A DNA stretch of 64,000 nt, taken from an uncultured Chloroflexia bacterium (GTDB taxonomy: Bacteria > Chloroflexota > UBA5177). Made by a program: the position numbers and the translations under genes. Under the pieces are notes generated by a model. The model saw only the letters and a program-made list of their open reading frames with translations, ran no database searches and was not told the DNA's origin. The stretch covers positions 1,758,355-1,822,354 of the forward strand of contig CAVTRL010000001.1 of NCBI GenBank assembly GCA_963737125.1, in the 5' to 3' direction. This document shows positions 8,410 to 62,989 of this stretch, piece after piece (within the stretch, counting starts at the first letter, position 1; each line of letters starts with the position of its first letter).

Positions 8410-8578
8410 TGACCCCTCGCACCCCCGCACACACCGCGCTGTTGCCGACGTCCGCCGCCAACCAACCGATTGTACAGTGCAAAGGGGCCGTTCGGGACGT
8501 CCGGCGGAGCCGGCGGGCAAGCGATCGACGGCCCGCACGTGTACTGGAGGCAACGATCAGGTCGAAGGCGCGTAAAGA

Positions 8579-19673: not shown

Positions 19674-19787
19674 ACTGAACGTATACGCTCCCGCGATCTA
19701 GTTGGCAAGAGCGGAATCGACACGCTTTTCAACCTCTGTCGCCGCTGTGGCGGCTAGAGGCTATTGCCGTTTAAAGAGGACGATGGA

Positions 19788-23686: not shown

Positions 23687-23737
23687 GGGTGCAGCCTGGA
23701 TAACGAAGCAGCGGGCACGGCGGTTGAATCTCGTTAC

Positions 23738-26567
23738 ATGATGGTGGACGGGCACGCGCTGGTTCATCGTGCGTTTCACGCGTTGCCGGAAGACCTCGCG
23801 ACTTCGGCCGGCGAACCGACCAATGCGGTGTTGGGCTTCACCAACATCGTTCTGAAAGTGATGGCCGAGAAGCGGCCGTCGCACATCCTGATGGCCATGG
23901 ATCGGCCGGTGCCCACCTTCCGGCACGAGCGGTTTGCCGATTACAAGGCGACCCGGCCGCCGATGCCCAGGATCCTGGCGGGACAGTTTGCAAGAGTGCG
24001 GGAGGTCGCGGACGCGCTCGGTATTCGCATTTTCGAGCTCGACGGGTACGAAGCCGACGATGTCCTGGGCACGCTGGCCGGAGAAGCCGAACGAGAGGGA
24101 ATCGACACACTGATCGTTACCGGCGATCTTGACGCGCTGCAGCTGGTGTCGGACCGGGTTCACGTGCTGACGCCGGGGCGAGGCGTGGCGGAGACTACCG
24201 AGTATGACGTGGACGCGGTGCGGAATCGGTATGGCATCGAGCCGGGCCAGCTTCCGGATTGGAAGGCGCTGGTTGGGGACACTTCCGACAACATTCCGGG
24301 CGTCCGCGGAATTGGCAACAAGGGCGCGACAAAACTGGTCGCCGAGTTCGGTTCGCTGGAAGGCATATTTGCGCACCTCGACGAACTGCCGGCGCGCATG
24401 AAGCAGCTGCTGGAGGACGCCGCGGACCAGGCGTACGAAAGCCGCGAGCTGGCGACTATACTCCGGAACGCGCCGATCGAGCTGCCCGTCGAGGACACCC
24501 GGAATACGGGCGGCGACCGCGCGAAACTGGTAGAGCTATTTCGCGATCTGGAGTTCTACAGCCTGATCGAGCGCATTCAGAGCGCTCTGCCACGGGCGGC
24601 CAGTGAGCCGGCATGGAAAAAGCACGACACGGGCCCGGAACAGCTTGCCATGTTCGAGATCGAAACCCTGGAGACGCCGGGGACGGCGAACGGCGGCGGC
24701 TTTGGTTCGGTCCCGGCGCCAGTACTGCCGCCAGCAGCCGATTTGGGATCGCACGTGCGGACCACGGTGGTACGTTCAGAGGAGGAGCTGCGAGCGCTGG
24801 TGCGGGATCTGTCCAACGCCGACATCTTCGCATTTGATACCGAGACGACGTCCACCGATCCGATGCGTGCCCGGTTGGTCGGGCTCTCGTTTTCCACGGA
24901 GCGGCGGGCCGGTTGGTACGTTCCGGTCAATCACGCCGAGGGCCAGCAGCTCGAAATCGAAGTGGTGCTCAAAGCGCTGCGACCGCTGCTGGCGGATCCA
25001 GGCAAGGGCGAAAGTCGGGCACAACCTGAAGTACGACTATGCCGTGATGGCGAACTACGGGATTCGCCTGGCCGGGCTGGAGTTCGACACCATGGTGGCC
25101 GCGTACCTGGTGGAGCAGACCGGCCGAAATCTTTCGCTGGACGCTCTGGCCCTGAAATACGCGCACGTCGAAATGGTGCCGATCAGCGCGTTGATCGGGA
25201 AAGGCAAGTCGCAGATCACGATGGACCGCGTCGATATTGACGTGGCGGGTGAGTATGCGGCGGAGGATGCTGCCCTCACACTTGAGCTGAAGGGTCTACT
25301 GGAGCCGGAGCTCGCCAAAATGGAGCTGACCGAGCTATTCCACACGGTGGAAATGCCGCTGGTGCGCGTGCTGGCCGAGATGGAGCTTGTGGGAGTGAAG
25401 CTCGATACCCAGGTGCTGGCGCAAATGTCGGTTGAAATGAGCGACATTATCGGCCGACTGGAGGCCAACATCTACGAACTGGCGGGTGGCCGATTCAACA
25501 TCAACTCCACCCAGCAACTGGGACAGCTGCTGTTCGTGCAACTCAAGCTGCCGTCCGGCCGCCGCACAAAAACCGGGTTCTCGACGGACAATGAAGTGCT
25601 CGAGGGGCTGCGCGGCAAGCATCCAATCGTCGACGAATTACTGCAGTACCGGCAACTCGTAAAGCTGCGGAGCACGTACATCGACGCGCTGCCGGTGCTG
25701 ATCAATCCGGAAACTGGACGGGTGCATACGGACTATAACCAGTGCTCGACCTCGACCGGACGGCTGAGCTCATCGAGTCCCAATTTGCAGAACATTCCAA
25801 TTCGAGGAGACATCGGCCGGAAAATCCGCCGCGCTTTCATTCCACTGGAGAAGGACCACGTGCTGCTGACCGCGGATTATTCGCAGATCGAGCTGCGCGT
25901 GCTGGCGTCGATGTCGCACGACCCGAAATTGGTGGAAGCGTTCCGCTCCGGATTGGACGTGCATCGCGCGACCGCGTCGGCGGTGTTTGGCGTCGACCTG
26001 GATGCCGTTACGCCCGACCAACGCCGGATCGCGAAAATCGTGAACTTCGGGATTATCTACGGCATCGGCGAGAACCGGCTGGCACACGAGACCGGGATTT
26101 CACGGGCTGAAGCCGCCGAGTTCATAGCGAACTACAATCGCACCTATGCCGGGGTCAAGGCCTTCATGGATGACATGCGCCGGCGTGCGGTGCTGTACCA
26201 GTATGTTTCCACGCTGCTGAACCGACGCCGGTACCTACCCGATATACACTCGTCCAATCCCGGCATTCGCACCGCGGCCGAGCGGGCGGCGATCAACATG
26301 CCGATCCAGGGCACTGCCGCAGACATCATCAAACTGGCCATGATCCGGCTGCAGAATGAGATCAGGGACCGGTTTCCGGACACCCACATGGTGCTGCAGG
26401 TGCACGACGAACTCGTGTTTGACGTTCCGCTGAGCCGCTTAACCGAGCTGGCGCGACTCGTGCAGGACGTCATGGAGCACGCGCTGCCGCTTGACGTTCC
26501 ACTGGAGATCGACATGAAGGTGGGAGACGACTGGTACGACATGGCGCCGCTGGAACGGGTGAGCTAG
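23738..26567 (+). CDS. polA: DNA polymerase I (single apparent frameshift near 25006)
   Basis: 5'-nuclease, 3'-5' exo-like and polymerase domains across track ORFs 23738..25240 and 24603..26567; frames switch at a GGG run (25006-25008) between ..LLADPGK and AKVGHNLKYD... Confidence 0.85.
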
Positions 26568-28681: not shown

Positions 28682-29464
28682 TTGAACATCGTCGTCTGCA
28701 TGAAGCAGGTCCCGGACACCACGGCTCGCCGCGAGCTGCTTTCGGACTTCCGGCTCAAACGCGAGGGCGTCGACAACGTGATCAATCCGTTCGATGAGTA
28801 CGCCATCGAAGAGGCGCTGCGGCTGCGCGACGTACACGGTGGTGAAGTGGCAATCGTCACAATGGGACCGCCGGGGGCCGAAGAGTCCATTCGCAAGGCC
28901 CTGGCCATGGGCGCGGACCGAGGAGTGCTGATTACCGATCCGGCCCTGGTGGGCACGGATTGGAGCGGGACTTGCACGGTGCTGGCAAAGGCGCTGACTC
29001 GATCTTCCTTCGACCTGGTAATGCTGGGCACGGAGAGCACCGACGCGCGATCCGGTCTGGTGCCGGGCGGATTGTCCGAGATACTCGACCTTCCGCTGGT
29101 GACATACGCCATGCGAGTCGAGATCTCGGGATCGACGGTCCACCTCGACCGGCAGATTGCCGGCGGATACGCCGAGGTATCCACCGAGCTGCCGTGCATC
29201 GTCAGCGTGGTGAAGGGAGCCAATGACCCGCGATACCCGTCGCTTAAGGGAATCATGGCCGCGAAGCGAAAGGAAATCGCCAAGCTTTCGCTTTCCGATC
29301 TAGGGGTCGATCCGCAGGAGGTTGGTTTCGCCGGGGCGCGAACCATTGTCTCGGGCGCAAAAGAGCGCTCGGCGCGGGAGCCCGGCCAGGTTCTGACTCC
29401 GGAGTCAGCGGAGCAAGCGGCAGCCGCCATTGCGGATTTCCTGCAGTCTCGGAAATTTATCTAA
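28682..29464 (+). CDS. etfB: electron transfer flavoprotein beta subunit
   Basis: 260 aa; MNIVVCMKQVPDT.. N-terminus typical of EtfB; intact. Confidence 0.85.
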   Translation: MNIVVCMKQVPDTTARRELLSDFRLKREGVDNVINPFDEYAIEEALRLRDVHGGEVAIVTMGPPGAEESIRKALAMGADRGVLITDPALVGTDWSGTCTVLAKALTRSSFDLVMLGTESTDARSGLVPGGLSEILDLPLVTYAMRVEISGSTVHLDRQIAGGYAEVSTELPCIVSVVKGANDPRYPSLKGIMAAKRKEIAKLSLSDLGVDPQEVGFAGARTIVSGAKERSAREPGQVLTPESAEQAAAAIADFLQSRKFI

Positions 29465-29494: not shown

Positions 29495-30482
29495 ATGGAA
29501 CCACGTGTTCTGGTGTATGTAGAGCAAGAGGATGGCGTGCCGAAGCGTACCGCGCTGGAAGCAGGGAGCAAGGCCGCGGAGCTTGCCGGGAATGGTGATG
29601 GAACCGTAACCGGTGTGGTGCTGGGAGTGGGAGCGGCACGATGCGTCGATGTGCTTCGCCGCCACGGATTCGATGAGATTCTGGTGTGCGAGGATGCCGC
29701 ATTCGGCGATTTTTTGGTCGATCCGCACGTGGAGATCGTGGCCCAGGTGATCGGCAATCGCCGGCCTCGGCGCCGTACTATTTCCCGATACCGGCCACAG
29801 CCGCGATATCGCCGCACGGGTCGCGGCCCGGGTGGGGGCAAGTCTGGTATCCGGTGTGGTCGATCTGACCTGGCGAGACGGTGCATGTTGAGGCGCAGGA
29901 GACGATTTTCGGGGGGAACTACGTCACGACGGTTGAAACTCGAAACGCCACAACCGGTGTGTTTTTGGTTCGGCCGAATGCGTTCGAGGCGCGCGAGACG
30001 CCGCGTGAGGGCGCCATTAGCAACCTAGAGTACGCGAGGGGCGAGCCCACGCAACGTGTCCGAATCGAGAAGGTGGTGGAGGAGCAGGGCGCCCCGATAC
30101 CGCTGGAGGAAGCCGCGATCATCGTGTCCGGCGGCCGGGGGCTGGGCGGACCGGAGCCGTTTCGCGCTCTTGCAGGAGCTTGCCGACGCGCTGGGAGGAG
30201 TGGTGGGAGCTTCTCGCGCGGCGGTCGACGCGGGGTGGATACCGTACTCGCATCAGGTTGGACAGACGGGACGGACGGTCAAGCCGTCGCTCTACATTGC
30301 CGATGGGGATATCCGGAGCGGTGCAGCACCGGGTGGGGATGCAGACCGCAGAGACGATAATCGCAATCAACAAGGACCCGGGTGCGCCGATTTTCACGTT
30401 GTCCGATCTGGCAGTAGTCGGCGACCTCTTTCAAATCGTCCCCGCTTTGACGGCGGAGATCAAGCGTCGGAAGGGAGCCTGA
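29495..30482 (+). CDS. etfA: electron transfer flavoprotein alpha subunit (at least 4 frameshifts)
   Basis: Conserved EtfA segments lie in different frames (29495.., [32 protein letters not shown] in a second frame, 29881.., 30056.., 30180..30482 ending ..[29 protein letters not shown]..). Confidence 0.75.
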
Positions 30483-30484
30483 CC

Positions 30485-31634
30485 CTGAATTTCGACCTTT
30501 CCGACGAACAAATCATGGTGCGAGATCTGGCCCGCGACTTCGCCACGAACGAGATGGCACCGAAGGCGGAGCATTACGACCGGGAGCACTCCGTTTCCGT
30601 ACGACGTGATCCAGGGATTGGCGGAACTCGGTTTCCTGGGGCTCCCTGTACCGGAAGAGTACGGTGGGGCGGGTGCCGACACGCTGACCTACGCGCTGGC
30701 CGTTGAGGAGCTCTCACGCGGTGACGCTTCAGTGGGCATCACGGTAGCAGCTCATACGTCGCTTGGCACCATGCCGTTTCTGCTATTCGGCTCTGAGGAG
30801 CAGAAACACGAATTCGTGCCTCCGCTAGCGCGCGGTGAGTCGCTCTGGTCATTCGGCCTGACGGAGCCCAACGCGGGGTCAGATGCCGGTGCGACGCGCA
30901 CGCAAGCGACGCTGACCGATGGTTCCTGGCGTGTGAACGGGGTGAAATCGTTCATCACGAATTCCGGCACGACCATGAGCGGGGGAGTAACTATCACCGC
31001 CGTTACCGGAACGTTGCCAGACGGTAAGGCGGAGATATCCAATTTGATCGTGCCGAGGGGCACACCCGGGTACTCGATTGCCAAAGACTACGACAAGATG
31101 GGCTGGCGGGCCTCCGACACTCACGAACTGGCGTTCAACGACGCGCAAGTGCCGGAGAACCGGCTGCTCGGCCCACGCGGTGAGGGGTTTCACCAGTTTC
31201 TAACGATTCTCGACGGCGGCCGGATTTCGGTGGCGGCGCTGAGCGTAGGGCTGGCGCAGGCGTGTTATGATGCCTCGTTCAAATACGCGCGCGAGCGGAG
31301 CCAGTTCGGGCGGGCAATCTCGAAATTCCAGGCGATCCAGTTTCGGCTGGCCGATATGGCGACGGAGATCGAGATGGCCCGCTTGATGACGTATAAGGCT
31401 GCCTGGCTGAAGGATGCCGGAAAGGACTTCCGGATGGCTGCCGGCATGGCAAAGCTCTACGCGACGGAAGTGGCGACACGCGCCGCGAACCACGCAGTGC
31501 AGATCCATGGTGGCTACGGAATCATGGAGGAGTTTCCGGTGGCTCGATACTGGCGGGACGTCAAGATCGGTGAAATCGGGGAAGGCACCTCCGAGATCCA
31601 GCGGACGGTTATCGCCCGACTGCTGGGCGCGTAA
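30485..31634 (+). CDS. acyl-CoA dehydrogenase (frameshift near 30600; start approximate)
   Basis: N-terminus ..[36 protein letters not shown].. in one frame, continuing as track ORF 30606..31634 (..[32 protein letters not shown]..). Confidence 0.75.
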
Positions 31635-31714
31635 TACAGTGGGAGTAGACGTCGCGCGTCGACTCGAACGTGCGCCCGCACCGCAGGCACCAGACCTTTC
31701 TAGAAAATAGCGTC

Positions 31715-32901
31715 ATGGAAGAAGTAGTTATTGTCTCGACGGCCCGCACGCCGTTCGGAAAGATGGGCGGCGCTCTCAGCCCATTGAGCGCGATCGATCT
31801 GGGCTCGTGCGTCGATTCGATCCGCGCTGGAACGGGCGCAGGTGCCGTTCGACGAGGTCGACGCAGGTAATCATGGGAACGGTCATCACGGCCGGTCTGG
31901 GTCAGATCCCGGCGCGGCAGGCGGCACTGAAAGCCGGGCTGCCCAAAGAGGTTTCGGCCCTGACGGTCAACAAGGTATGCGCGTCCAGTCTGAAGGCGGT
32001 CAATCTGGCCGCCCAGATGATCCGGGCCGGGGACGCCGACGTGGTGGTGGCGGGAGGCATGGAGAGCATGAGCAATGCTCCGTACCTCTTGCCCGGCGCA
32101 CGTTTCGGATACCGGATGGGCGACGGCGAGCTGGTCGACGCGATGATGCGCGACGGTCTCAACTGTCCTACCGGGTGCGTCCCCATGCACGAGTACGGAA
32201 GCGACGTGGCCGCGGAATTCGAGATCAGCCGGGAGGACCAGGATCGATGGTCGCTGCGCAGCCAGCAGCGGTACGCCGCAGCGCTGGACGCCGGGAAGTT
32301 TTCGGACGAAATCGTGCCAATCTCGGTACCGCAGCGAAAGGGACCGGCACTGCTGGTGGATCGGGACGAACAGCCCCGCCCGGACACGACCTTCGAAGGA
32401 TTGCAGAAGCTCAAGCCGCTCAAGCCGGGGGGCAGTGTGACGGCGGGAAACGCTCCCGGCGTCAACGACGGCGCGGCCGCGCTGGTGGTTATGTCGGGCC
32501 GGAAAGCGGCGGCGCTCGGCGTCACGCCGCTGGCCATTCACCTGGCGCAGGGCGAGGCAAACGACGAGAACCGCTATCTGCATACCGTGCCGGCGGATGC
32601 CATCCTTCGCGCTTTGAAACGGGCGAAGATCGACCTGGATCAGATCGGCCTATTCGAAATAAATGAGGCGTTCGCGGCGGTGACGCTGCGTAGCATGCAA
32701 ATGCTCTCGCTGGACGGCGAGAACGTCAACGTGAACGGCGGAGCAGTGGCGATCGGACATCCGATCGGCGCGTCGGGCGCGCGCATTCTGGGGGCATTGA
32801 TCCTCGAGATGGGCCGCCGCGGCGTGGAGTACGGCGCGGCAGGCATCTGCAGCGGCATGGCGCAGGGTGAGGCGACCGTGGTACGCCTCCCCTTCAGGTA
32901 A
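31715..32901 (+). CDS. acetyl-CoA C-acetyltransferase (thiolase); two frameshifts near 31800-31860
   Basis: MEEVVIVSTARTPFGK.. start; conserved ..VNKVCASSLKAV.. and C-terminal ..NVNGGAVAIGHPIGASGARIL..; N-terminal 45 aa in a different frame from the rest. Confidence 0.8.
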
Positions 32902-32940
32902 AGCGTCCGGGTGGTGTCTTGAGCGGAGCCGAAGCGTATC

Positions 32941-34087
32941 GTGGATATTGAGCTGACCCAGGACGAGACCGACATTCTCGACGTAGTACGGTCGTTCGCA
33001 CGCGAAGAAGTGCTGCCACGCGCAGCGGCGATCGACCGGGACGGTGAGTATCCGGTCGATCTGGTGCGTGCCATGGGGGAACTGGGACTGATGGGCGTGC
33101 CGTTTCCGGAAGAGTACGGCGGCGCAGACCAAAGGTATTTAATGTTTGCGCTGATCGTCGAAGAGCTATGCCGGGCGTGCGCCAGTACCGGCCTGATCAT
33201 GGACGTCAATATCTCGCTGTGCGGCGAGCCCATCTGGCTATTCGGCACCGAAGACCAGAAGCAGAAGTATCTGGGACGGCTGGCGCGCGGAGAGGCGCTG
33301 GGCGCACTGGCGATGACCGAACCGGAGGCAGGCTCGGACGCAGCGTCGATTCGGACGACAGCGGTGAAGGATGGCGATTGCTACGTCCTGAACGGCCGAA
33401 AGATCTTCATCACGAACGGTGAGGTCGCGGACATGTACATCGTGACGGCGGTGACCGACCCCGAGAAGGGAACGCACGGGATCACAGACTTCATCGTCGA
33501 AAAGGCATGGCCGGGTGTCTCATTCACGACTCACTACGAGAAGATGGGCATCCGCGGCGCACCGACCACGGACGTGGTGCTGGAGAACGTCGAGGTGCCG
33601 GTCGAGAACGTGCTGGGCGGCGAGGGAAACGGATTCAAAGTCACGATGGACACGCTCGACGCGGGGCGGATCGGCATCGCGGCGCAGGCGGTCGGTATTG
33701 CGCGCGCGGCGCTGGAGGACGCGACGGAGTACGTCAAGACCCGGCGGCAGTTTGGAAAGTCGATCTGCCGAATTCCAGGGCATGCAGTTCATGCTGGCCG
33801 ACATGGCGACAGCAATTCACGGCGCCAGGCTTTTAACCTTACGGGCGGCCGGTCTGCGCGACGCGAATATCCCGTGCGCGCGGGAATCTTCGATGGCGAA
33901 ACTGTTTGCAGGCGACACGGCGATGAACGTGACGACTGAGGCGGTCCAACTTTTCGGCGGGTACGGCTACATGCAGGAGTATCCAGTGGAGCGCCATATG
34001 CGAGACGCGAAAATCACGCAGATTTACGAGGGTACGCAACAGATCCAGCGAGTGGTGATTGCCCGCCAGGTGTTGAACGCCCGATGA
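32941..34087 (+). CDS. acyl-CoA dehydrogenase (frameshift near 33770)
   Basis: Track ORFs 32941..33939 and 33515..34087 together give a full ACAD (..[32 protein letters not shown]..). Confidence 0.75.
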
Positions 34088-35229
34088 ACTTCACTCTGAC
34101 CGACGATCAGGAAGCTATCCGCGACGCGGTACGCGACTTCGCACAGGGTGAAGTGGCGCCTCGCGCGGCGCAAATCGACCGCGACAATGTCTTTCCGCGC
34201 GATCTGGTGGAGGCGGCGGCGGGGCTCGATCTGCTGGGCATCGTCGTGCCGGAGCAGTACGGCGGGACCGGGCTGGACCATGTCTGCTTCGCGCTCTTCG
34301 TGGAGGAGATCGCGGCCGTCTCGGGCACGCTGGCCGTGATTCTCGACGTGCACACGTCGGTGGGTACCGAACCAATCATTGCTTTCGGAAGTGACGAACA
34401 AAAGCAGCGGTATCTTCCCCGACTGGCGCGCGGGGAGTATCTCGCGGCATTCGCGCTTTCCGAGCCTGAGTCTGGATCGGACGCCGCCAGCCTGACGTCC
34501 AGCGCCACTCTGGTCGACGGCTGTTATCGCTTGAACGGAACGAAGACGTTTATCACCAATGTCGGCGAGGCCGGACTCTACATCGTGATGGCACGCACCG
34601 GCGAGCCGGGAGCTCGCGGCATCTCGGCGTTCATCGTGGAGGCGGACACGCCCGGACTGTCGTTCGGGGCGCCGATGCACAAAATGGGCCTGCGAGGGTC
34701 GTCCACCGGCGAATTAGTGCTGCACAACGTCGAGGTGCCGGTGTCGAACCTGCTGGGCGACGAGGGACAGGGTTTCCGGGTGGCGATGAAGGCTCTGGAC
34801 AGCGGGCGGATCGGGATCAGCGCCCAGGCGGTCGGCCTGGCGCGAGGGGCGCTGGACCTGGCATCGTCGTACGCCACAGGAACGCCAACAGTTCGGCCAG
34901 CCGATTGCGCGCTTTGAGGGCATCCAGTTCATGCTGGCAGACATGGCAACCGCCATCGACGCGTCGCGGCTGATGACGTGGGAGGCAGCGGCACGCTGCG
35001 ACGCGGGGAAGCCCGTTTACGTCGTCGGCGTGCCATGGCAAAGCTGATGTCGACTGATACGGCGATGAAGGTTACGACCGACGCGGTGCAAATCCTGGGC
35101 GGATACGGCTATATCAAAGAGTTTCCGGCCGAGCGGTTCATGCGCGATGCGAAGGCGACCCAGATCTACGAGGGTACCAATCAGATCCAGCGTATCGTCA
35201 TCGCGCGCGACCTGCTGCGCGGTGGATGA
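34084..35229 (+). CDS. acyl-CoA dehydrogenase (frameshifts near 34880 and 35030)
   Basis: Track ORFs 34084..34917 and 34978..35229 plus an intervening third-frame segment (..[16 protein letters not shown]..). Confidence 0.75.
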
Positions 35230-35236
35230 CCCCGGT

Positions 35237-36220
35237 ATGGCGACGCCGAGCACAGATGTGCTGGTCGATGGTTTACGGCGGCGCAACCGGAGAGCTGCCG
35301 GAAGGCTCATCAGCCTGATTGAGGATCAGTCCGCCGAGGTAGAAGCGGTGATGCGGGAGGTGTACCCATACACCGGCAAGGCGTATTTCATCGGCGTCAC
35401 GGGACCGCCGGGCGCCGGAAAGAGCACGGTGGTGGACGAATTGATACGCGTGGTGCGCGAAACGGGTGACGCCATTGCGGTGGTCGCGGTGGATCCGAAC
35501 AGCCCGTTTTCGGGCGGCGCGATTCTGGGGGACCGGATCCGAATGATGCGCCACGCTTCGGATTCCGGTGTGTTCATTCGCAGCATGGGCGCACGCGGGC
35601 ATCTCGGCGGCATCGCCACGGCGACTCTGAACGCCATGTTGATCCTCGATGCCATGGGGAACGATATCGTCCTGGTGGAAACGGTGGGAGTGGGACAGTC
35701 GGAACTGGAGGTGGCGTCGACGGCCGATACCACGATCGTGATTTTGCCGCCGGGCCAGGGGGATGGTGTGCAGGCGATCAAGGCAGGCATCATGGAGATT
35801 GCAGATGTTTACGTCGTAAATAAGGCGGATCATCCCCAGACCAAGCGCACGGTGGCGGAGCTACGCGAACTGCTGAGAACCGCGCCCGTGCAACCGCCAT
35901 GGGTGCCTCCCATCGTGGAAACCATCGGCACACAGAACGCCGGTATTGAAGACCTGTGGGAGGCGATTACCAAGCATCGTGACTACCTGGAGCGAAGCGG
36001 AGAGCTCGAGCAGCGACGGACTGACCGGATCGAGCGCGAGATAGTGGACATCGTGGAAAGGCGTCTGAGATCGGAATTTTTGCTACCACAGCTCCAAACT
36101 GAGGAATTTACCAGCATGGTTCAGCAGGCAGCACGCCGGGAGTTGAGCCCCTACGAGGTGGCGGAACGTCTGTTACCCGCAGACCGACTACCGAGAAAGC
36201 AGGCATCGATTGGACGATAA
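35237..36220 (+). CDS. meaB: MeaB/ArgK-family G-protein chaperone for B12-dependent acyl-CoA mutase
   Basis: P-loop ..[12 protein letters not shown].., ..[10 protein letters not shown].., ..VVNKADH..; start set at MATPSTD within track ORF 35147..36220. Confidence 0.85.
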
Positions 36221-37863
36221 CGCAGGTCTCGAGGCCGAGTTCCAGGCATGGCGCGAGCATCGGTACGGGAAGGATCGCGCCGTTTCATTCACGACTCTTT
36301 CCGATCACGGCATCAAGCCGCTGTATTCGCCGCTCGACACGCCGCCCGCGAGCTTTGAGGCCAAGGTCGGCTGGCCTGCCCAGTACCCGTATACGCGTGG
36401 CATCTACGGAAATATGTATCGCGGCCGTCTCTGGACCATGCGTCAGTTTGCCGGGTTCGGCACAGCTCGGGATACAAACGAGCGGTTTCACTACTTGCTT
36501 GAGCACGGCATGACCGGCCTCTCGGTGGCCTTCGATAATCCCACTCTGATGGGAATCGACTCGGACGATCCGCGCGCGCTGGGAGAGGTGGGACGGACCG
36601 GCGTCGCGATGGATTCGCTGGCCGACATGGAAGTGCTGTTCGAAGGGATTCCACTGGATCGGGTCAGCACCTCGATGACCATCAACGCTCCGGCCGCTGT
36701 TCTGCTGGCAATGTACGTCGCCGTAGGGGAGAAACAGGGCGTTCCGAGCGTTCAACTCACGGGGACGCTACAGAACGACATTTTGAAGGAGTACATCGCC
36801 CAGAAGGAATGGATTTATCCCCCGGCAGCGGGCGTCAAACTGATCGTCGATACGGTTGAATTTGCGATGGAGCACATGCCAAAGTACAACCCGATCAGCA
36901 TCAGCGGCTATCACATTCGCGAAGCGGGCGCGACTGCCGTACAGGAACTGGCTTTCACGATTGCCGACGGCGTGACCTACGTAGAAGCATGCATTGCGAG
37001 GGGCCTGGAGGTGGATGCTTTCGCACCGCGACTCTCGTTCTTCTGGAACTCGCACATCGATTTCTTCGAGGAAATTGCGAAGTTTCGCGCGGCGCGACGC
37101 ATGTGGGCGTCGATCATGCGGGATACGTTCGGAGCGAGGGATCCGAAATCGTGGCTGATGCGTTTCCACACGCAGACGGCGGGAGTGTCGCTCACGGCCC
37201 AGCAGCCCGAGAACAACATCGTGCGGACCGCTCTGGAGGCGATGGCGGCGGTGCTGGGCGGCACGCAGTCGCTCCACACCAACTCGATGGACGAGGTGCT
37301 TGCTTTACCGACCGAGAAGGCGGTTGAAATTGCGCTCCGGACGCAGCAGATCATCGCCCACGAGACCGGCGTGGTGAACACGGTGGACCCACTCGGCGGA
37401 TCGTACTTCGTGGAGGCGCTGACAGACGAATGGAGGCCGGCGCACGCCAATACTTCGCGACGGATCGAGGAGTTGGGCGGCGTGCTGGCAGGGATCGAGG
37501 CCGGATTCTTCCAGCGAGAGATCGGCGAGTCGGCGTTCCACTATCAGCGGCAACTGGAACGCGGCGAGAAGGTGATGGTGGGAGTCAATCAATTCGTGAC
37601 GGACGCGCCGATCGATATTCCCGATACTCAGTATCGATCCCGAGGTGGAACGATCGCAGGTGGCGCGCGTGCTGGAACTCAAAAAAGCCCGGACGGAAAA
37701 CCGCGTACACGACGCGCTGGCGCGGGTAAAACTGGCCGCGGCGGACGGCCGGAACGTCATGCCATCGCTGCTGGCGGCCGTACGCGAGTACGCGACCATT
37801 GGAGAAATGTCGGAAGCAATGAAGGTTGAGTTCGGAAGTTATCGAGAGCCCGCTCTGGTGTAA
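36210..37863 (+). CDS. B12-dependent acyl-CoA mutase, large (substrate-binding) subunit; ICM-like signature; frameshift near 37625
   Basis: ..[18 protein letters not shown].. and ..[16 protein letters not shown].. plus ..[14 protein letters not shown]..; C-terminal 72 aa in a second frame (track ORF 37645..37863). Confidence 0.8.
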
Positions 37864-37904
37864 GCTGCCACGGTGGGCCGCTGGCAAAGTAGGAGTGTGA
37901 AGTC

Positions 37905-38324
37905 GTGGCGGAAGGAAAGATTCGCGTCCTGATGGCAAAAGCGGGGCTGGACGGACACGACCGCGGGGTAAAAGTCGTGTCCCGCGCGCTGCGAGACGCC
38001 GGCATCGAAGTTATTTACACGGGTCTCCATCAGACTCCGGAGGGTGTGGTAAGCGCAGCAGTGCAGGAAGACGTGGACGCAATCGGATTGAGCCTGCTGT
38101 CCGGGGCGCACATGACCCTATTTCCGCGAATTCTGAGCCTCCTGCGAGAAGAGGATGCGGGCGATATCCTGGTGTTCGGCGGAGGAACGATTCCTCAGGG
38201 TGACGTGGCGAGTCTAAAGGCGATGGGCGTGGCGGAGGTCTTCACGCCCGGTGCCTCGACAGTCGATATCGTGGAGTGGGTCCGGACGAACGTGACGAAG
38301 AAGAGCCTGAGCGGGCAGACCTGA
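37905..38324 (+). CDS. acyl-CoA mutase small subunit (B12-binding domain)
   Basis: 139 aa; ..[15 protein letters not shown].. cobalamin-binding DxHxxG motif. Confidence 0.85.
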
Positions 38325-38330
38325 CGGGGT

Positions 38331-38654
38331 CTACAGCTTACTCAGTGCAAGCACCAGCAGCACCAGCGGCAGCGATAGAAACGACCCTACGATGGTGGTT
38401 GCCATTGGTGCCACCGACAACGCGCGCCACTGCGAAATTTCGACAGCGGTGTGCGAGGGAGCTCGCAGCATGGCACGCGTACCGACTATCGCCGCGCCCA
38501 GCAGGACACAATAGAAGACGCCGAGGAGTGCAGTCTGCGCGACCGAGAATGCCAGGAACCGGCTGAAGAGGAAGCCCTCCGCGAACCAGATGAGAACCGA
38601 CGCGCCGATATAGATAGAGGTTCGAATCATTTTATTTTGGTCCGCCAGCATAAT
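38331..38654 (-). CDS. hypothetical membrane protein
   Basis: Hydrophobic track ORF 38331..38735; upstream part overlaps the tRNA-Leu gene, so the start is set at the internal Met. Confidence 0.3.
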   Translation of the reverse strand: MMLADQNKMIRTSIYIGASVLIWFAEGFLFSRFLAFSVAQTALLGVFYCVLLGAAIVGTRAMLRAPSHTAVEISQWRALSVAPMATTIVGSFLSLPLVLLVLALSKL

Positions 38655-38705
38655 GACGGCGCCCCGCCGACTTTTCGACAGGGCGCCGTAGGGTTTCGAG
38701 ATGAT

Positions 38706-38793
38706 TGGTGCGCCCGACTGGACTCGAACCAGCACTCCCTTAACGGGAACTAGGCCCTCAACCTAGCGCGTCTACCTGTTCCGCCACGGGCGC
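38706..38793 (-). tRNA. tRNA-Leu (anticodon GAG)
   Basis: Reverse complement folds as a class II tRNA: acceptor GCGCCCG/CGGGCGC, anticodon stem CTAGG/CCTAG with loop TTGAGGG, long variable arm (tcccgttaaggga), T-loop TTCGAGT, encoded CCA. Confidence 0.8.
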
Positions 38794-38891
38794 GACAATC
38801 TAAAGTATAGAAATGGCTTTCCGGCACTGTCAACGCGCCGTCTTCGTGGCTGTGCAGGCGCACGACGCACACTCAATTCAGGGGCAGGGCA

Positions 38892-39435
38892 ATGGCACGG
38901 GTAACGACCGGTACGGGAGACGAAGGCTGGACCGATCTGCTCGGCTCGGAACGCGTGCCCAAGTACCATCCCCGTCCGGAAACGTTCGGAACGGTCGACG
39001 AGGCGACGTCCGCGCTGGGGCTAGCCCGGGCGCATCTCGAACGATGCGGCGCTCAAAGATCAGATTTACCGGCTCCAGCAGGATCTATACGTGCTGATGG
39101 CGGAGCTCGCGACGCCTGCCGAGAACTACGCCAAAGTCGACTTCAAAATTCGATCGGAACACGTGGAGCGCCTCGAAAAGGAAAGCGAAGTGCTCAAAGC
39201 GGAAGTCGAAATCGGAAAGGTATTCGTGGTGCCGGGGGCGACGGTGGCGGGAGCCGCGCTGGACGTGGCACGCACGGTGGTTCGCCGCGCTGAGCGCCAG
39301 GTGGCCCGGCTTTATCACGAAGGCGACATAACGAACGCATTCGCGCTGCGCTATCTGAACCGACTGTCGGATCTGTTATTCATCATGGCGAGGTACGAGG
39401 AAGCTACGACCAGGGAGCCGCCGGACGACAACTAG
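38892..39435 (+). CDS. PduO-type ATP:cob(I)alamin adenosyltransferase (frameshift near 39050)
   Basis: MARVTTGTGDEGWTDLLGSERVPK.. N-terminus and ..DLYVLMAELATP.. C-terminal half in two frames; stop codon TAG (39433-39435) abuts the inverted repeat. Confidence 0.7.
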
Positions 39436-39451
39436 TGGGTCACTTGTGTTG
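39432..39451. repeat. left terminal inverted repeat (with flanking C-TA)
   Basis: ctagtgggtcacttgtgttg, perfect reverse complement of 45449-45468. Confidence 0.8.
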
Positions 39452-39543
39452 GTCAAAGCCACTGGTTCGTGCTGCTCGTCGTCTCCGGGGTGACCCCTTC
39501 AAGGCGCCACGAGGGAATGGCTCTGGCCGACCCCCTTGACCCA

Positions 39544-40002
39544 CTAAGAGCGACTCGTGGTCAGCGGAAGCCCAAGCAGGAGAATAGCCCGTGCAACCAG
39601 CACCCCTGCTCCCACCGCCACGAGCGCCATGAGGCCATGCAGCACCTCCTCCAGCACCACGGGACCCGGCGAAGTATTAGTGTAAAAACTCTGAAAGCCA
39701 ATGGCGACGAGGCTGAGAAAGAGGACGACTTCACCAGCGAGAGCCAGGGCAGCATACTGTAGGGATTGAAGAGCGCCGCGGTGGTACCTCTGCGGCCGAA
39801 GGAACGCCAGCCAGATGATGCCTCGCTCGGAGGCAACGACAAGAAGACTGAGGGCCACGATGCCGACGATCACCGCCACTCCACATTGAAAAGTCCCCAG
39901 CCCGACACTAATTGGGAGGCCGCTCGGACGGTGAAGGAAGGGTGTGCTGGTGGCTATCCCAGCCAGAACCGCAAGGCCGCCAAGGACGCAGAACGTTTTC
40001 AC
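39544..40002 (-). CDS. hypothetical polytopic membrane protein (family A, copy 1)
   Basis: 152 aa, about 4 TM helices; N-terminal 60 aa clearly paralogous to ORF 42717..43436 (..LAVLAGI(A/G)(T/A)STPFL(H/Q)RP..GTFQ..). Confidence 0.5.
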   Translation of the reverse strand: MKTFCVLGGLAVLAGIATSTPFLHRPSGLPISVGLGTFQCGVAVIVGIVALSLLVVASERGIIWLAFLRPQRYHRGALQSLQYAALALAGEVVLFLSLVAIGFQSFYTNTSPGPVVLEEVLHGLMALVAVGAGVLVARAILLLGLPLTTSRS

Positions 40003-40020
40003 AGCATGTCCGCCTTCAGG

Positions 40021-40548
40021 TCACGGCAGTTGCACGGTACCCCGAAATGTCACCGTTACGGGTCCAGGTGGAGCGTGCTGCCCGTGCACGAATTGCTCCG
40101 TGTACGTTCCGCGCCCACGAGCATGTGCGAACCGCCCCGTGCCCCCGGTAATCGTGAACGTCCCAACCTGGGCAGGTGTACCTGGAGGGACTGGACGGAA
40201 GCAGGCAGAGAACGTGGAGCGGTACGTCAGGCTGTTACCTCCGGCGCCACGAAGCCGCCCCGGTCCTTTCATCGGAATACAGCCGCTCGGATTGGGAACG
40301 CCGACGCTGTGGGAGCGGAGAGTGCTGCGACCGAGGATGGTTGCCGTTCCGCTCGCAACAACCGCCTCCCGCAACTGGTGCGCGTCCGGAAGGTGAGACA
40401 TCCCGTGATAGGTGGCACGAAAGGCTATACGACCGAACAGGCCGCTGGCATGGGTACCAGGAACGGGTGATGAGAGTGCCGCGCACGCTGCAGCAGCAAC
40501 AGCCAACCATGAGAATCGTTGCATCATGTCATCGGACCTCCCTTTCAC
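40021..40548 (-). CDS. hypothetical secreted protein
   Basis: 175 aa; predicted signal peptide (..MMQRFSWLAVAAAACAALSSP..), Gly/Thr-rich beta-like remainder. Confidence 0.45.
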   Translation of the reverse strand: MKGRSDDMMQRFSWLAVAAAACAALSSPVPGTHASGLFGRIAFRATYHGMSHLPDAHQLREAVVASGTATILGRSTLRSHSVGVPNPSGCIPMKGPGRLRGAGGNSLTYRSTFSACFRPVPPGTPAQVGTFTITGGTGRFAHARGRGTYTEQFVHGQHAPPGPVTVTFRGTVQLP

Positions 40549-41987
40549 CGTACCCCGTCAATTCGGACGCTGAAGTCGGCGCAGTGTGCCGAAACGATGT
40601 CTACGCGCAGCCTGCCTTTGATCCGCACCGTGGTATAAAACTCCCCCGGTCCCGGCATCAGACCGCGAACAGGAACTGCCACGCGCTTCGCGGCCGCGGT
40701 CTGCACGGCGATGCGCACGCCGGTCACACCGGGACACGGAGGTGCATCGGGATACACGCCCGCCGTTACCTGCCACGGTCCGGTCGCGGTAAACCACGGG
40801 GAATACGTATGGAGCTGCGGTCTGGCGTTGTACGTGCCGGAGAAGAAGATCGCCGGGACCACGTCATGCCACGTCTTGCCGCTGTCGCTGCTGCGCACCA
40901 ACCGGCGCAATCTGCCTGCGGCGTAGCAGGTAGAGGCGCTGGGGCACGCGATGGCAGTAAGGGGAGACGCGCCCGGGAGGTTCACCACCCTCCAGCTCTT
41001 CCCTCCATCGGTCGTCCTGGCGGTGGTTCCTGCCCTGCCCAGGGCAATGCAGGTGGTCGGCGTGGGACAGGAAAGGGCACCCATGCCCGGGGTCAGCACG
41101 TGGTTGGCTCCTGGACCCGGTCCTCCAGCCACGGCGCCGAGTCCGGGGATCAAGTGGCGCTTCCAGGTGCGGAACCCGTCCTGGGTGGTAACGGCCACTG
41201 CGTGGTACACGCCGCCATGGTAGTAGCTCGCCCCGGCGAAACAGATGCGCTGCGTTGGACAGGCGATCGCGTGGAACTCGTAGCACGCTAAGGGGGAACA
41301 CGCCGCTCCGCCAACATGGCTGATGAGCCACCGTTTCGCGCCGCCCGTGCTCCGTCCAATTACGTTGTAGCCACCCGCGTAACAGACCGTGGCGCTGGGG
41401 CAGGAGAGCGGCACTGATACACCGCCGCCAAAATCACGCGTCAGCGCTCCCGTGCTCCTCCAGCTCCTGCCGCCATCCATGGTCCGGATGACTTCGTCCC
41501 CCGAGGGGGGCCGAAAGAGCTGAACCGAGCAAGTAGACCCATTTACGCAGGCAAGTCCGGGGAGAGCGCATCCTAGCGGGTGAGATCGTTCCGCCCAGGT
41601 GCGGCCGCCATTAGTGGTGTTCAGCACAGGAAGCGGAGAGGAGCCATTGAGGCAGCCTTCGGTGAGGGCAAAGCAGGCACTGATAGCGGGACAGGTGATC
41701 GTGGCAAGGGAACTCGGCGACCGGCTGGGCTGTGCCTGCCAGGTGGCCCCCGCGTCATGCGTACTGAGGATCGAGCCCTGACTTCCGACGACATAGCACA
41801 CGCGCACGCTGGGACACGAGATGTCTCGGAGCGTTTCCTCCGCCGTTCCCGAGGGTAGGGCGGATTGCTCAGTCGCGGGAGACGCAGCCCGCGTTGTGAA
41901 ATCAGGACTGCCGGCTCCTGCTGCGGTGAGCACGAGAGCGAGCAGGAAGGGCACGAGTACGGAATGATGCTGCCGTATATGTGTCAC
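40545..41987 (-). CDS. secreted Asp-box (BNR)-repeat beta-propeller protein with repeated CPxxxxC motifs
   Basis: About 7 repeats each with C-P-x-x-x-x-C-(Y/F)-x-x-G followed by an Asp-box-like [ST]xDxGx[ST]W (e.g. TTDGGKSWR, SSDSGKTWH); signal-peptide-like start at a GTG (..VTHIRQHHSVLVPFLLALVLTAAGAGS..). The 5' part of track ORF 40545..42509 is rejected. Confidence 0.55.
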   Translation of the reverse strand: MTHIRQHHSVLVPFLLALVLTAAGAGSPDFTTRAASPATEQSALPSGTAEETLRDISCPSVRVCYVVGSQGSILSTHDAGATWQAQPSRSPSSLATITCPAISACFALTEGCLNGSSPLPVLNTTNGGRTWAERSHPLGCALPGLACVNGSTCSVQLFRPPSGDEVIRTMDGGRSWRSTGALTRDFGGGVSVPLSCPSATVCYAGGYNVIGRSTGGAKRWLISHVGGAACSPLACYEFHAIACPTQRICFAGASYYHGGVYHAVAVTTQDGFRTWKRHLIPGLGAVAGGPGPGANHVLTPGMGALSCPTPTTCIALGRAGTTARTTDGGKSWRVVNLPGASPLTAIACPSASTCYAAGRLRRLVRSSDSGKTWHDVVPAIFFSGTYNARPQLHTYSPWFTATGPWQVTAGVYPDAPPCPGVTGVRIAVQTAAAKRVAVPVRGLMPGPGEFYTTVRIKGRLRVDIVSAHCADFSVRIDGVR

Positions 41988-41989
41988 GG

Positions 41990-42490
41990 CTATGCCGCTC
42001 GACGAGCCAGGAATAGTAGCGCGACGGGGCCCAGGATAATTCCTATGACTGCGGCGATGAGGAAGCCGAAGGCGGCCGCAGTGAGAAACGCGTATCCGGC
42101 CGTTGGGCCGGCCGTGCAGCTCGCTTTCTCGAAGCAGGGATTGGCGTAGCCGGCGGACAGTGCGGCTACGACCAGATCGACAAAGGCAAGGATACCGCCA
42201 AGGGCATAGATGATCGTAGCCTGACCGTAGATGCCGTCTCGCGCGCGAGCAGCTGAGAAGAGCAGCGCACCGCACGGTAGCAGCGCGAAGGCGAGGCTGG
42301 TGAGGAACACAGATCCGCCATATCGCTGCGCAATTGAACCGGAGAGGAGCGCGAGGGCCGAGAGGATGGCACAGAGTGGGCCGGCCAGCACGACCGCCCA
42401 CGCCACGTGTCTGCCCGCGGACATGCCCGGCTCGTCCCCTCGTATCGTCAGTTGCTGTTTCCTGTGCCGTGTTGCAGCGGTCGGTTCCAT
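41990..42490 (-). CDS. hypothetical polytopic membrane protein (family B, copy 1)
   Basis: 166 aa; shares (F/Y)ANPC(F/W)..(A/P)SCT(A/G)G loop motif and TM layout with ORF 43438..43935. Confidence 0.5.
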   Translation of the reverse strand: MEPTAATRHRKQQLTIRGDEPGMSAGRHVAWAVVLAGPLCAILSALALLSGSIAQRYGGSVFLTSLAFALLPCGALLFSAARARDGIYGQATIIYALGGILAFVDLVVAALSAGYANPCFEKASCTAGPTAGYAFLTAAAFGFLIAAVIGIILGPVALLFLARRAA

Positions 42491-42716
42491 GAGTCCCTCC
42501 TTGCAGCACTCACTCTATGCCTGTCCTGCACAGAACGCGTGAGGATGACTACCGATGGTCTCTTGGGGAGAATCACGTAGGTGGACAGCCGGGTACCGCG
42601 ACCGAGGGGACAGCGCAGATATGTTTGCTCGGACGATTCCGTATACCTGGCCGATCTAGGCCCACCGAAAAGGTAGCGCATCACCGTCTCAATCATCGAC
42701 CGTTTGTGCTCCAGAG

Positions 42717-43436
42717 CTAGCGTCCAACCAAGAACGGATAGAGTTCGGCCCTGTGCTTCCACCGCCCCACCAGCACGTAGGAGCCGGAGGATGGGAAGAA
42801 GAGATAGCCGCAATAGAACAGGAATCGCCTGGCGTTCTTGTCGCGCCTATATGCATCCGACATGGGATCCAAGCGCAGAACCGGGCCAGCGGTCTGCGGA
42901 CTGTCTCCAAACATAACCGCCTTACCCGATGCGAGGTTCCATCCACGCACCGTGATAACGTCTGTGAGCGCGGGGCCTGCCGCCGAGACAGCCTTTTGGT
43001 ACGGGGCACGCGGCCTGGTCCTCGTGTGGAGGATCCCGTCCACTGTGGACGGATTGACCCACAGCGGAGCTCGACCAAACGCGTGGTGAAAGGCCCCGGC
43101 GAGTCGCTGCATTGGAGCTCGGGGTGGGCAATTCTTCGGCACCGGCCCGTAGTGGGGGGACGGCTTGTTAGCGCTGACCATTGCGGCGCCGGCCGGCCAG
43201 AGTACGCCAGCCGCAGACGCCACGGCCAGGAGAGCCAGCATCACCATCCCGTCTGCCGCCGCCACCACCACTTGAAAGGTCCCCGGTCCGACACTCGATG
43301 AGAGGCTGGTCGGACGTTGAAGGAACGGCGTGCTGGCACCTATCCCCGCCAGAACCGCAAGGGCACCAATGACCAGGAACGACTTCACGGACAACTGCTG
43401 TATCCGCGGCGACCCTTTGGGCATCTCCCCAGACAT
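42717..43436 (-). CDS. hypothetical membrane protein (family A, copy 2) with divergent C-terminal region
   Basis: 239 aa; N-terminus paralogous to 39544..40002; C-terminal half unlike copy 1 and may be partly non-coding read-through. Confidence 0.4.
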   Translation of the reverse strand: MSGEMPKGSPRIQQLSVKSFLVIGALAVLAGIGASTPFLQRPTSLSSSVGPGTFQVVVAAADGMVMLALLAVASAAGVLWPAGAAMVSANKPSPHYGPVPKNCPPRAPMQRLAGAFHHAFGRAPLWVNPSTVDGILHTRTRPRAPYQKAVSAAGPALTDVITVRGWNLASGKAVMFGDSPQTAGPVLRLDPMSDAYRRDKNARRFLFYCGYLFFPSSGSYVLVGRWKHRAELYPFLVGR

Positions 43437-43437
43437 G

Positions 43438-43935
43438 TCAGGGCCCGTGCCCGCTCACAATGTGCTCAGTCGATCGTCGTGCCGCGCGAAGGAGCAGGGG
43501 CGAAAGAAGCAGAGCAACGGCTGCGGCCAGCAGCAAGACGAGTAGCGCAGCCTTGAGGATGCTGTCCTCGAGGGATGACCCGCCCGTACAGCTTGGGTTG
43601 TCCCAGCAGGGGTTGGCGAAGACCCTGAACAGGGCGACCGCTCCGATGCCGGGCAGAAGAACCACCCCTCCTGCAAGAGACGCGCTCCTGGCTGCAGGCA
43701 GATCCGCCCGGCGCGCCAATTTCGCTGCCCGGAGGAGCATCTGGCAGGGGACCATCCCAAGGCCGACTACCCCAACCACGATGGCTATTTGTACGCCGAT
43801 GGGGAAGCGCAATACTCTGTCGTCGTACAGAGCTGTGCCAAGGACGACGGCACACACTCCGAGGGCAGCGAGCACCGCACCGGCGACTGCTGCGAGGTAG
43901 GCCATCCATTGTGAGATCGGAGCGGAGCGGGTCAT
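43438..43935 (-). CDS. hypothetical polytopic membrane protein (family B, copy 2)
   Basis: 165 aa; ..FANPCWDNPSCTGG.. motif paralogous to 41990..42490. Confidence 0.5.
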   Translation of the reverse strand: MTRSAPISQWMAYLAAVAGAVLAALGVCAVVLGTALYDDRVLRFPIGVQIAIVVGVVGLGMVPCQMLLRAAKLARRADLPAARSASLAGGVVLLPGIGAVALFRVFANPCWDNPSCTGGSSLEDSILKAALLVLLLAAAVALLLSPLLLRAARRSTEHIVSGHGP

Positions 43936-44063
43936 CTCGGTGCCTCGATAGCTCGACTTTATACCGGCGCAGAGGGGAAGACATCCGTAAGACCACGGAA
44001 GATCTCGTCCTCAGCCGAAGAGATGGGGAGCGGCCCCGCCAGCCGGCTGCGCTCGACTCCTGG

Positions 44064-44089
44064 CGGGTCACGTGTATTGGTCACAACCC
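44064..44089. repeat. internal degenerate copy of the left terminal repeat
   Basis: gcgggtcacgtgtattggtcacaacc vs left end gtgggtcacttgtgttggtcaaagcc: 21/26 identical, same orientation as the left end, no TA flank. Confidence 0.55.
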
Positions 44090-44094
44090 TTGTC

Positions 44095-45421: not shown

Positions 45422-45448
45422 GCCTACTGCCGTCGATTGGCAGTCATC

Positions 45449-45468
45449 AACACAAGTGACCCACTAGA
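45449..45468. repeat. right terminal inverted repeat (with flanking TA-G)
   Basis: caacacaagtgacccactag; its CTA (45464-45466) is the minus-strand TAG stop codon of tsaD. Confidence 0.8.
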
Positions 45469-46507: not shown

Positions 46508-46519
46508 GGCGCGATCGCG

Positions 46520-59091: not shown

Positions 59092-60804
<1,713 letters not shown>

Positions 60805-61525: not shown

Positions 61526-61883
61526 ATGGTTCAGGATTATGTCCCGCTTCTGATCCTCACGATCCTGGCGGGCGGTTTTGCAGTGACCAATATGTTCATC
61601 ACGTTCGTGGTCGGGCCGTGCCGTCCGACGCGCGAAAAGCTGTCATCCGTACGAGTCGGGAATGACGGAGATCCAGCCGCCGAGGCAGCGGTTTCCGATC
61701 AAGTTCTACGTCATCGCGATGCTGTTTCTTCTTGTTCGACATCGAAGCGATTTCGTTTTATCCGTGGGCGATGTTGCTTCGGGTCTTGCACTTTTCAGGC
61801 TTCATTGAAATGTTCATCTTTATAGTCGTCCTCTTGTAGGGTACGTCTACATCTGGAAGAAGGGAGCGCTCGATTGGGAATAG
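61526..61883 (+). CDS. nuoA: NADH-quinone oxidoreductase subunit A (about 3 frameshifts)
   Basis: [20 protein letters not shown].. then ..[10 protein letters not shown] / [12 protein letters not shown].. / ..[15 protein letters not shown] in successive frames. Confidence 0.7.
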
Positions 61884-62446: not shown

Positions 62447-62459
62447 GCGCGCGCGGAGT

Positions 62460-62950: not shown

Positions 62951-62989
62951 AGGTTAGGCGATTCGATTCCATGGTCACCACCGAACGCA

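Follow-up and report, generated by a model that had tools for sequence, protein, structure and literature searches.

Clustered one-base insertions that split conserved genes in a Chloroflexia contig are probably a consensus artefact

Seven conserved genes between 29,768 and 39,033 of a 64,000-nucleotide stretch of DNA from an uncultured Chloroflexia bacterium (the window, numbered from its first letter) are interrupted by 15 one-base indels, 14 insertions and 1 deletion by frameshift-aware alignment. The character and distribution of these lesions argue that the frame switches are very probably an artefact of consensus building or polishing in a long-contig assembly, and not mutations of the organism. 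The actual genes would then make up a module of etfBA, acyl-CoA dehydrogenases, thiolase and B12 mutase that works normally, as in related Chloroflexota.

Results

We aligned proteins to the DNA with a purpose-written aligner that allows frameshifts, using as references 120 EtfA relatives and orthologues from L049, L050 and L051, three syntenic loci with intact genes from related Chloroflexota. Loci matched by a MeaB scan of a genome collection supplied the first reference proteins; as a search for a close relative, the scan gave a best match 49-55% identical, too distant for base-level comparison. The set of events was unchanged between penalties 14 and 8, and its distribution (etfA four, acyl-CoA dehydrogenases 1, 2 and 3 one, one and three, thiolase two, mutase large subunit three, pduO one) bears out the original prediction of at least 14 frame switches in seven genes. 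Pfam searches of the ORF pieces agree, with every family divided between adjacent frames. The comparison with relatives' loci that had been proposed alongside that prediction shows uninterrupted orthologues in the same gene order at all three syntenic loci; a fourth, JGI locus, seen as a gene list without DNA, likewise has uninterrupted genes in the same order.

Taking the genes in order (plus strand unless stated), etfB (28682-29464) is intact: a single ORF with a Pfam ETF match at 4-180 of 181, it aligns over residues 1-260 of 260 to three orthologues without a frameshift. Frameshift-aware alignment places four one-base insertions in etfA (29495-30482; at 29767-71, 29882-83, 30159-63 and 30303), whose repaired form has exactly 327 codons and aligns with zero gaps to 327-aa relatives at 60-68% identity. 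Pfam and frameshift-aware alignment together identify a one-base insertion at 30591-93 in acyl-CoA dehydrogenase 1 (ACAD1, 30515-31634; 372 aa when repaired, with 85% identity to the L049 orthologue) and two, at 31813-14 and 31863-64, in thiolase (31715-32901; about 79% identity to the L050 orthologue and zero internal stops when repaired). By alignment, acyl-CoA dehydrogenase 2 (ACAD2, 32941-34087) has a single insertion at 33767, in the context ATCT[G]CCGAA and outside any homopolymer, and acyl-CoA dehydrogenase 3 (ACAD3, 34084-35229) has three (34877, 35003 and 35032). An apparent in-frame stop in ACAD3 at 34915-17 was considered as selenocysteine or recoding and ruled out, as the segment lies out of frame between two insertions.

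The meaB GTPase chaperone gene (35237-36220) is intact, with a Pfam MeaB match at 2-267 of 273 and no frameshift against L050 or L051; its longest ORF begins at 35147. The acyl-CoA mutase large subunit (36210-37863; Pfam and frameshift-aware alignment) carries the sole deletion of the block, near 37428 and 29 nt away from an insertion at 37457, with a further insertion at 37618-23; the ten codons from the deletion to the first insertion match orthologues only once repaired (MEAGARQYF versus MEAEAQAYF). By Pfam and alignment the small, B12-binding subunit (37905-38324) is intact, and its exact 139-aa product is already recorded from the source contig. On the minus strand follow an intact small conserved ORF (38334-38735, by frameshift-aware alignment) and an intact tRNA-Leu(GAG) (38706-38793), both within the feature 38334-38793; the plus-strand ORF pieces at 38276-38753, earlier read as a broken gene, are shadows of these two. 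Finally, pduO, encoding a PduO-type cobalamin adenosyltransferase (38892-39435), has its Pfam halves in two frames around a one-base insertion at 39032-33, placed by three-frame reading against the L051 orthologue.

Once extra bases are removed, each gene runs its full length without an internal stop and with at most one amino-acid gap against orthologues, in keeping with the earlier observation that conserved motifs are all present and only the frame changes. Frameshift-aware alignment finds no indel in etfB, meaB, the mutase small subunit (mutS) or the small minus-strand ORF, and the tRNA-Leu is likewise intact; the neighbours described as uninterrupted are indeed so. Their intactness inside the block is roughly what chance would give: meaB, mutS and the small ORF would all be missed with a probability of about 0.05, and for the largest event-free gap P is 0.28. 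Selective sparing of meaB, mutS and etfB was dropped as unnecessary, the gaps being compatible with chance. The clustering itself exceeds chance. At least 15 of 16 events would fall in the block with P = 3e-4 if uniform across 19.8-39.4 kb, and with P = 1e-8 if uniform across 1-39.4 kb.

Upstream, the first 28 kb had been described as holding one switch, in polA, and this stands: polA (23732-26564) has a single one-base insertion at about 25003-10 by frameshift-aware alignment, the same method finds zero indels in valS, rhomboid, DUF2851 and PRT, and ORFs of 1-19.6 kb have full-length Pfam coverage in one frame each. Downstream, a patch at 59-64 kb is denser than the 29.5-39.1 kb block. Here nuoD (62971-64000, truncated by the window end) contains nine one-base insertions in 1 kb by frameshift-aware alignment (62991-92, 63444-47, 63509-13, 63540-41, 63559-60, 63622, 63765-66, 63814-16 and 63980-82), yet after repair its product shares 92-95% identity with NuoD relatives of 394 aa; nuoC also carries lesions like those of the block. 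Urocanase (hutU, minus strand, 59167-60825) is heavily frameshifted in the same alignment, with at least 8 indels in 600 nt, a lower bound as the C-terminal half has no reliable count: insertions lie at 60626, 60578-83, 60549, 60525-26, 60482 and 60361-63, deletions near 60464 and 60337, and further ones downstream. Three of the +1 insertions, all inside a stretch of about 100 nt, together bring the reading back into frame. A search of a representative library with a urocanase fragment returned mostly out-of-frame or frameshifted matches, P0434 itself being riddled. Short frame runs at 39.9-45 kb were also considered as frameshifts and set aside: low-GC codon-position phase tracking, usable where codon usage was too noisy, marks an atypical island in which frameshifts are unproven. 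Inside patches, lesions number about 1.5 to 9 per kb; the sequence between patches is clean over 14-25 kb. The lesion cluster is not specific to the catabolic module, polA, nuoD, nuoC and hutU being hit too.

Across the window we mapped 30 insertions against 3 deletions (about 10:1), each deletion lying 18-29 nt from an insertion. Pure homopolymer extensions account for 0 of the 30 insertions against a random-insertion expectation of 24%, a shortfall with P = 0.0013 at n = 24 and 0.758^30 = 2.5e-4 with the six hutU sites added. At 19 of the 30 the insertion is one of an adjacent pair of unlike bases, and the protein is the same whichever base is removed; 47% would be expected (P = 0.04, computed at n = 24). 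These sites, about two thirds of the total, resemble a pair of synonymous alleles set next to each other. Where placement is unique, at the eight such sites tested outside hutU, removing the neighbouring base instead gives only a conservative change (S/A, K/Q, V/M or L/I; P = 0.09). The 30 sites share no enriched 3- to 5-mer, and GATC or CCWGG methylation motifs at junctions, considered by eye, were unsupported after precise site placement and the k-mer test.

Discussion

Several lines of evidence support the original prediction in placing sequencing or assembly error first: essential genes are hit, repaired genes are clean, insertions predominate and homopolymers are avoided. Single extra bases and a few paired missing bases would enter while the consensus of a long contig is built or polished. 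The source contig measures 2,349,993 bp, which implies long reads, and its predicted proteome already holds fragments (P0121, P0241 and P0361). The error profile is unlike the usual homopolymer-linked long-read errors, so the exact technical cause is one that we infer; the missing homopolymer association points to another technical route, not to biology.

Within the artefact class, we regard as roughly evenly balanced the proposal that allele doubling from strain collapse lies behind many of the extra bases. Reads of closely related strains would be collapsed into one consensus, and many an extra base would represent a second allele set down next to the first at a polymorphic site. Doubled alleles would explain insertion bias, homopolymer avoidance and patchiness together, the last since strains do not diverge evenly along a genome. 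The statistics behind this route are modest (P = 0.04 and 0.09 in two of three tests), and it also relies on the practice of some consensus methods of encoding a mismatch as one inserted and one deleted base.

A possible, if somewhat doubtful, source is random insertion error of noisy long reads that survived low depth or absent short-read polishing, with no strain mixing. Patches with clean 14-25 kb stretches between them would suit such errors, as would the lack of a motif, the insertion bias and the long-contig source. They should, however, include about 24% neighbour-base duplications without other ambiguity, where 0 of 30 were seen, and would leave the excess of synonymous two-base ambiguity unaccounted for. 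Residual ONT, HiFi and well-covered PacBio errors are, moreover, mostly homopolymer-linked, with G/C deletions dominating in GC-rich genomes (PMC12007338, PMC8574707).

The alternative raised originally, pseudogenisation of the whole module, fares poorly. Extended to a real and very recent loss of the catabolic module, hutU and nuo, it is unlikely, although the deposited sequence does contain the lesions, which interrupt conserved genes, several per gene as in decaying genomes, and no independent assembly contradicts it: the searched collections contain no second assembly of the organism, the exact products being singletons and the nearest EtfA 68% identical. In hit genes, frameshift-aware alignment shows neither nonsense codons nor deletions of several bases. 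Nor does branch-length comparison show extra divergence of hit genes over intact neighbours: relative to the distance separating the two orthologue loci used for each gene, the amino-acid branch of the window lineage measures 0.40-0.73 for hit genes and 0.45-0.97 for unhit genes. The close identity of nuoD despite nine insertions, the frame restoration in hutU, and the hits to polA and complex I outside the module all count against decay. In nature, one-base indels come mostly from slippage within runs, and bacterial genomes usually lean towards deletions; a 10:1 excess of insertions that avoid homopolymers is the opposite of natural slippage.

Less probable again is a reading in which the organism does carry the insertions, as very recent products of a localised insertion-only mutational process in chromosome patches of a living Chloroflexota population. 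If true, the process could be, for instance, an error-prone filling of gaps in the course of recombination or repair, and genes of a B12-dependent acyl-CoA catabolic module, urocanase and complex I would have been knocked out before other decay set in. Programmed recoding at each site, by +1 ribosomal frameshifting, transcriptional slippage or RNA editing, would suit events that are nearly all +1 with perfectly conserved downstream frames, but is highly improbable for 30 sites without a slippery or common motif, as many as nine of them in one gene, which lie outside the homopolymers that transcriptional slippage would require and are absent from orthologues whose ORFs run uninterrupted in the same gene order.

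Read as a consensus artefact, the finding is unremarkable and of use chiefly as a caution about the quality of this record. Fragmented and chimeric proteins from the public record, such as the 362-aa NuoC/NuoD chimera P0241 and urocanase pieces of 173 and 225 aa, have already entered protein databases. With such proteins as input, a genome would score as less complete and richer in pseudogenes than it is, and a metabolic reconstruction would wrongly suggest that complex I, the B12 mutase, histidine use and ETF-linked acyl-CoA oxidation had been lost. We suggest that the signature described here (patchy, insertion-biased, non-homopolymer, with extra bases that resemble second alleles) may serve to diagnose strain collapse in long-read metagenome assemblies without reads.

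Comparison with known systems

In true decay, as in Mycobacterium leprae or recent symbionts, many frameshifts fall in conserved metabolic genes whose neighbours are intact; there, frameshifts are accompanied by deletions, nonsense mutations and faster substitution, and essential genes are spared. The window differs from decay of the Mycobacterium leprae type in showing none of nonsense mutation, raised divergence or essential-gene sparing.

Closer parallels come from long-read assemblies, in which indels that fragment genes have been described (Kastor, PMC12007338; ARAMIS, PMC8574707). As in those bacterial cases, the lesions here are one-base indels, often several per conserved gene, the resulting proteome contains fragments and chimeras, and comparison with orthologues recovers full-length genes. 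Unlike them, the window has a 10:1 excess of insertions, no pure homopolymer extension and patches of about 1.5-9 per kb.

Allele-specific assembly of Trypanosoma brucei offers a second parallel (PMC8445201). Collapsing nearby allelic variants creates indels there, nearby variants disturb read alignment, and apparent frameshifts vanish once haplotypes are separated (PMC8445201). The trypanosome is a diploid eukaryote and its case is backed by reads; here the mixture would be one of co-assembled bacterial strains, proposed from sequence context. The two are alike in their unevenness, variant density varying greatly along the trypanosome chromosomes (PMC8445201) and indels being patchy here, where the extra bases may be second alleles.

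Frameshifts in a conserved acyl-CoA gene block

Between 28.7 and 39.4 kb the window (GC content about 62%) encodes, on the plus strand, etfB, etfA, a first acyl-CoA dehydrogenase (ACAD1), a thiolase, two further dehydrogenases (ACAD2 and ACAD3), meaB and both subunits (large, then small) of a B12-dependent acyl-CoA mutase. The mutase small subunit is followed by a short ORF and a tRNA-Leu on the minus strand, and the stretch ends with plus-strand pduO (PduO-type adenosyltransferase). Pfam divides most of these families among neighbouring reading frames. The nearest EtfA relatives are from uncultured Chloroflexota (60–68% identity), and three of their contigs (L049, L050 and L051), plus a fourth JGI locus compared by gene list alone, have the same gene order: Sua5, valS, rhomboid, polA, DUF2851, PRT, etfB, etfA, ACAD, thiolase, ACAD, ACAD, meaB, mutase, B12-binding subunit, pduO, tsaD. 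The comparison with orthologous loci that the original prediction proposed thus finds all these genes unbroken in the relatives, except pduO of L051. The latter (approximately 20250–20900, GCA_963731225.1) is frameshifted, with a 110-aa called product and its C-terminal half in another frame; this public MAG likewise bears at least one gene-breaking indel. No second assembly of the window organism was found in the collections searched.

We located indels with a purpose-written protein-to-DNA dynamic-programming aligner permitting one- and two-base frameshifts, the queries being syntenic orthologues (57–86% identical) and the EtfA relatives; calls in the block were the same when the frameshift penalty was dropped from 14 to 8. 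Four insertions fall in etfA (29767–71, 29882–83, 30159–63 and 30303), one in ACAD1 (30591–93), two in thiolase (31813–14 and 31863–64), one in ACAD2 (33767), three in ACAD3 (34877, 35003 and 35032) and one in pduO (39032–33), while the mutase large subunit has one deletion (approximately 37428) and two insertions (37457 and 37618–23). The resulting 15 events in seven genes (14 being single-base insertions) agree with the at least 14 frame switches originally predicted, and are lower bounds, as intergenic indels and compensated pairs in poorly conserved segments are undetectable. Their concentration in 29.5–39.4 kb far exceeds chance (P = 3e-4 to 1e-8, by choice of denominator). As also predicted, etfB, meaB and the mutase small subunit are uninterrupted, and neither the minus-strand ORF nor the tRNA-Leu has an event; random placement of 15 events would leave roughly this many neighbours unbroken (P approximately 0.05 for meaB, the mutase small subunit and the small ORF all escaping; largest gap, P = 0.28).

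The 5′ end of the small minus-strand ORF in its longest form (38334–38735) shares 30 nt with tRNA-Leu(GAG) (38706–38793, minus strand); because orthologues align only from approximately 38630, translation of the ORF probably begins downstream of the tRNA. The plus-strand pieces at 38276–38753 are shadow ORFs of this minus-strand gene, not a broken gene.

Lesions elsewhere in the window

Upstream, the single break that had been reported holds: polA (23732–26564) is split into two overlapping ORFs by an isolated single-base insertion at 25003–25010, the aligner finds no frameshift in valS, rhomboid, DUF2851 or PRT, and the ORFs of 1–19.6 kb have complete Pfam domains, each in a single frame. An ORF-list suggestion that 19764–22472 is polA was rejected, this gene being valS. 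A full-length gene for SelB, the selenocysteine-specific elongation factor (8576–10450), makes selenocysteine use by the organism probable; the frameshift finding involves no in-frame TGA.

A positional-GC phase track and Pfam flagged a second, much denser patch at 59–64 kb (59167–64000). Here nuoD (62971 to the window end) has nine single-base insertions in 1 kb, and its repaired product is 92–95% identical to 394-aa NuoD relatives. Within the first 600 nt of hutU, the minus-strand urocanase gene, at least eight indels were mapped (six insertions, two deletions); three of the insertions, each +1 and all inside approximately 100 nt, return reading to frame. nuoC is also affected, and perhaps nuoB; a 362-aa NuoC/NuoD chimera (P0241) is present in the public protein set. 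Used as a query against the representative library, a partly out-of-frame urocanase fragment mostly matched GC-rich translations that were likewise out of frame or frameshifted, among them a 547-aa 'urocanase' (P0434) that switches back and forth between the true frame and shadow frames; fragments of this kind seem to be common among public protein sets.

Genes of 45.4–59 kb appear whole, and across the window patches of approximately 1.5 to 9 lesions per kb are separated by clean stretches of 14–25 kb. Between pduO and tsaD (45467–46519, minus strand), approximately 6 kb (39436–45466) is absent from L051. It holds an intact 654-aa BNR/Ycf48-like ORF (40548–42509, minus strand), a weakly matching DDE_3 transposase-like ORF (44098–45174, minus strand) and several further ORFs without Pfam match, with flat positional GC; the segment is perhaps a mobile island or one specific to the strain.

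Character of the lesions and state of the genes

Mapped lesions comprise 30 insertions versus three deletions. Each deletion is paired with an insertion 18–29 nt away (37428–37457, 60337–60362 and 60464–60482), so that a short stretch is out of frame before the frame is regained; in plus-strand coordinates the deletion comes first in all three. The extra base's identity is ambiguous at most sites. For each insertion we listed all positions whose deletion yields an identical repaired protein; the null expectation came from simulating random insertions exhaustively across these genes. Pure homopolymer extensions number 0 of 30 (24% expected; P = 0.0013 for 24 sites, 0.758^30 = 2.5e-4 for 30). 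Two adjacent unlike bases, either of which can be deleted to give the same protein, account for 19 of 30 (47% expected; P = 0.04, n = 24), and 11 of 30 are uniquely placed (29% expected). At the eight uniquely placed sites tested outside hutU, deleting the neighbouring base gives conservative replacements only (V/M, E/Q, S/A, K/Q, D/E, S/A, F/L and L/I; P = 0.09).

With extra bases deleted and the one missing base padded, repaired genes match orthologue lengths (etfA exactly 327 codons, zero gaps) and have no internal stops. In a three-taxon comparison of each gene with two related loci, amino-acid change on the window lineage was 0.40–0.73 of the distance between those loci for frameshifted genes and 0.45–0.97 for untouched genes: the two sets are alike, with no sign of relaxed selection.

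Assembly artefact or biology

We infer that the lesions are consensus-building or polishing errors in a long-read-scale assembly, because the source NCBI record is a 2.35-Mb contig whose predicted proteins already contain gene fragments. The first choice of the original prediction, indel error, is favoured likewise by the intact repaired genes; the frameshift cluster is very probably an ordinary artefact of unusual pattern and no biological feature. Its alternative, pseudogenisation of a catabolic module, loses its main appeal, since the same lesions occur in genes for DNA polymerase I, respiratory complex I and histidine catabolism as well as in those for acyl-CoA metabolism. Genuine decay would add nonsense mutations and faster substitution, and neither is observed. 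Natural single-base indels come mainly from slippage within runs, and the tendency of bacterial genomes is towards base loss over gain; neither pattern is seen here. Programmed frameshifting needs a motif and conservation in orthologues, but 3- to 5-mers show no enrichment near the insertion sites and the orthologues lack the shifts.

As to the route by which such an artefact would arise, reads of closely related strains may have been collapsed into one consensus, two alleles at a polymorphic site being written successively to leave an extra base. Among artefact routes we give this roughly even odds, the alternative being plain low-depth read noise that escaped polishing. Residual long-read errors are usually homopolymer-linked, and deletions in GC-rich genomes (PMC12007338; PMC8574707); the window lesions do not fit this description, and their signature would be better matched by allele doubling. 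A related effect is known from collapsed haplotypes of Trypanosoma brucei, where nearby allelic variants produced indels together with apparent frameshifts and the density of variants along chromosomes was very uneven (PMC8445201).
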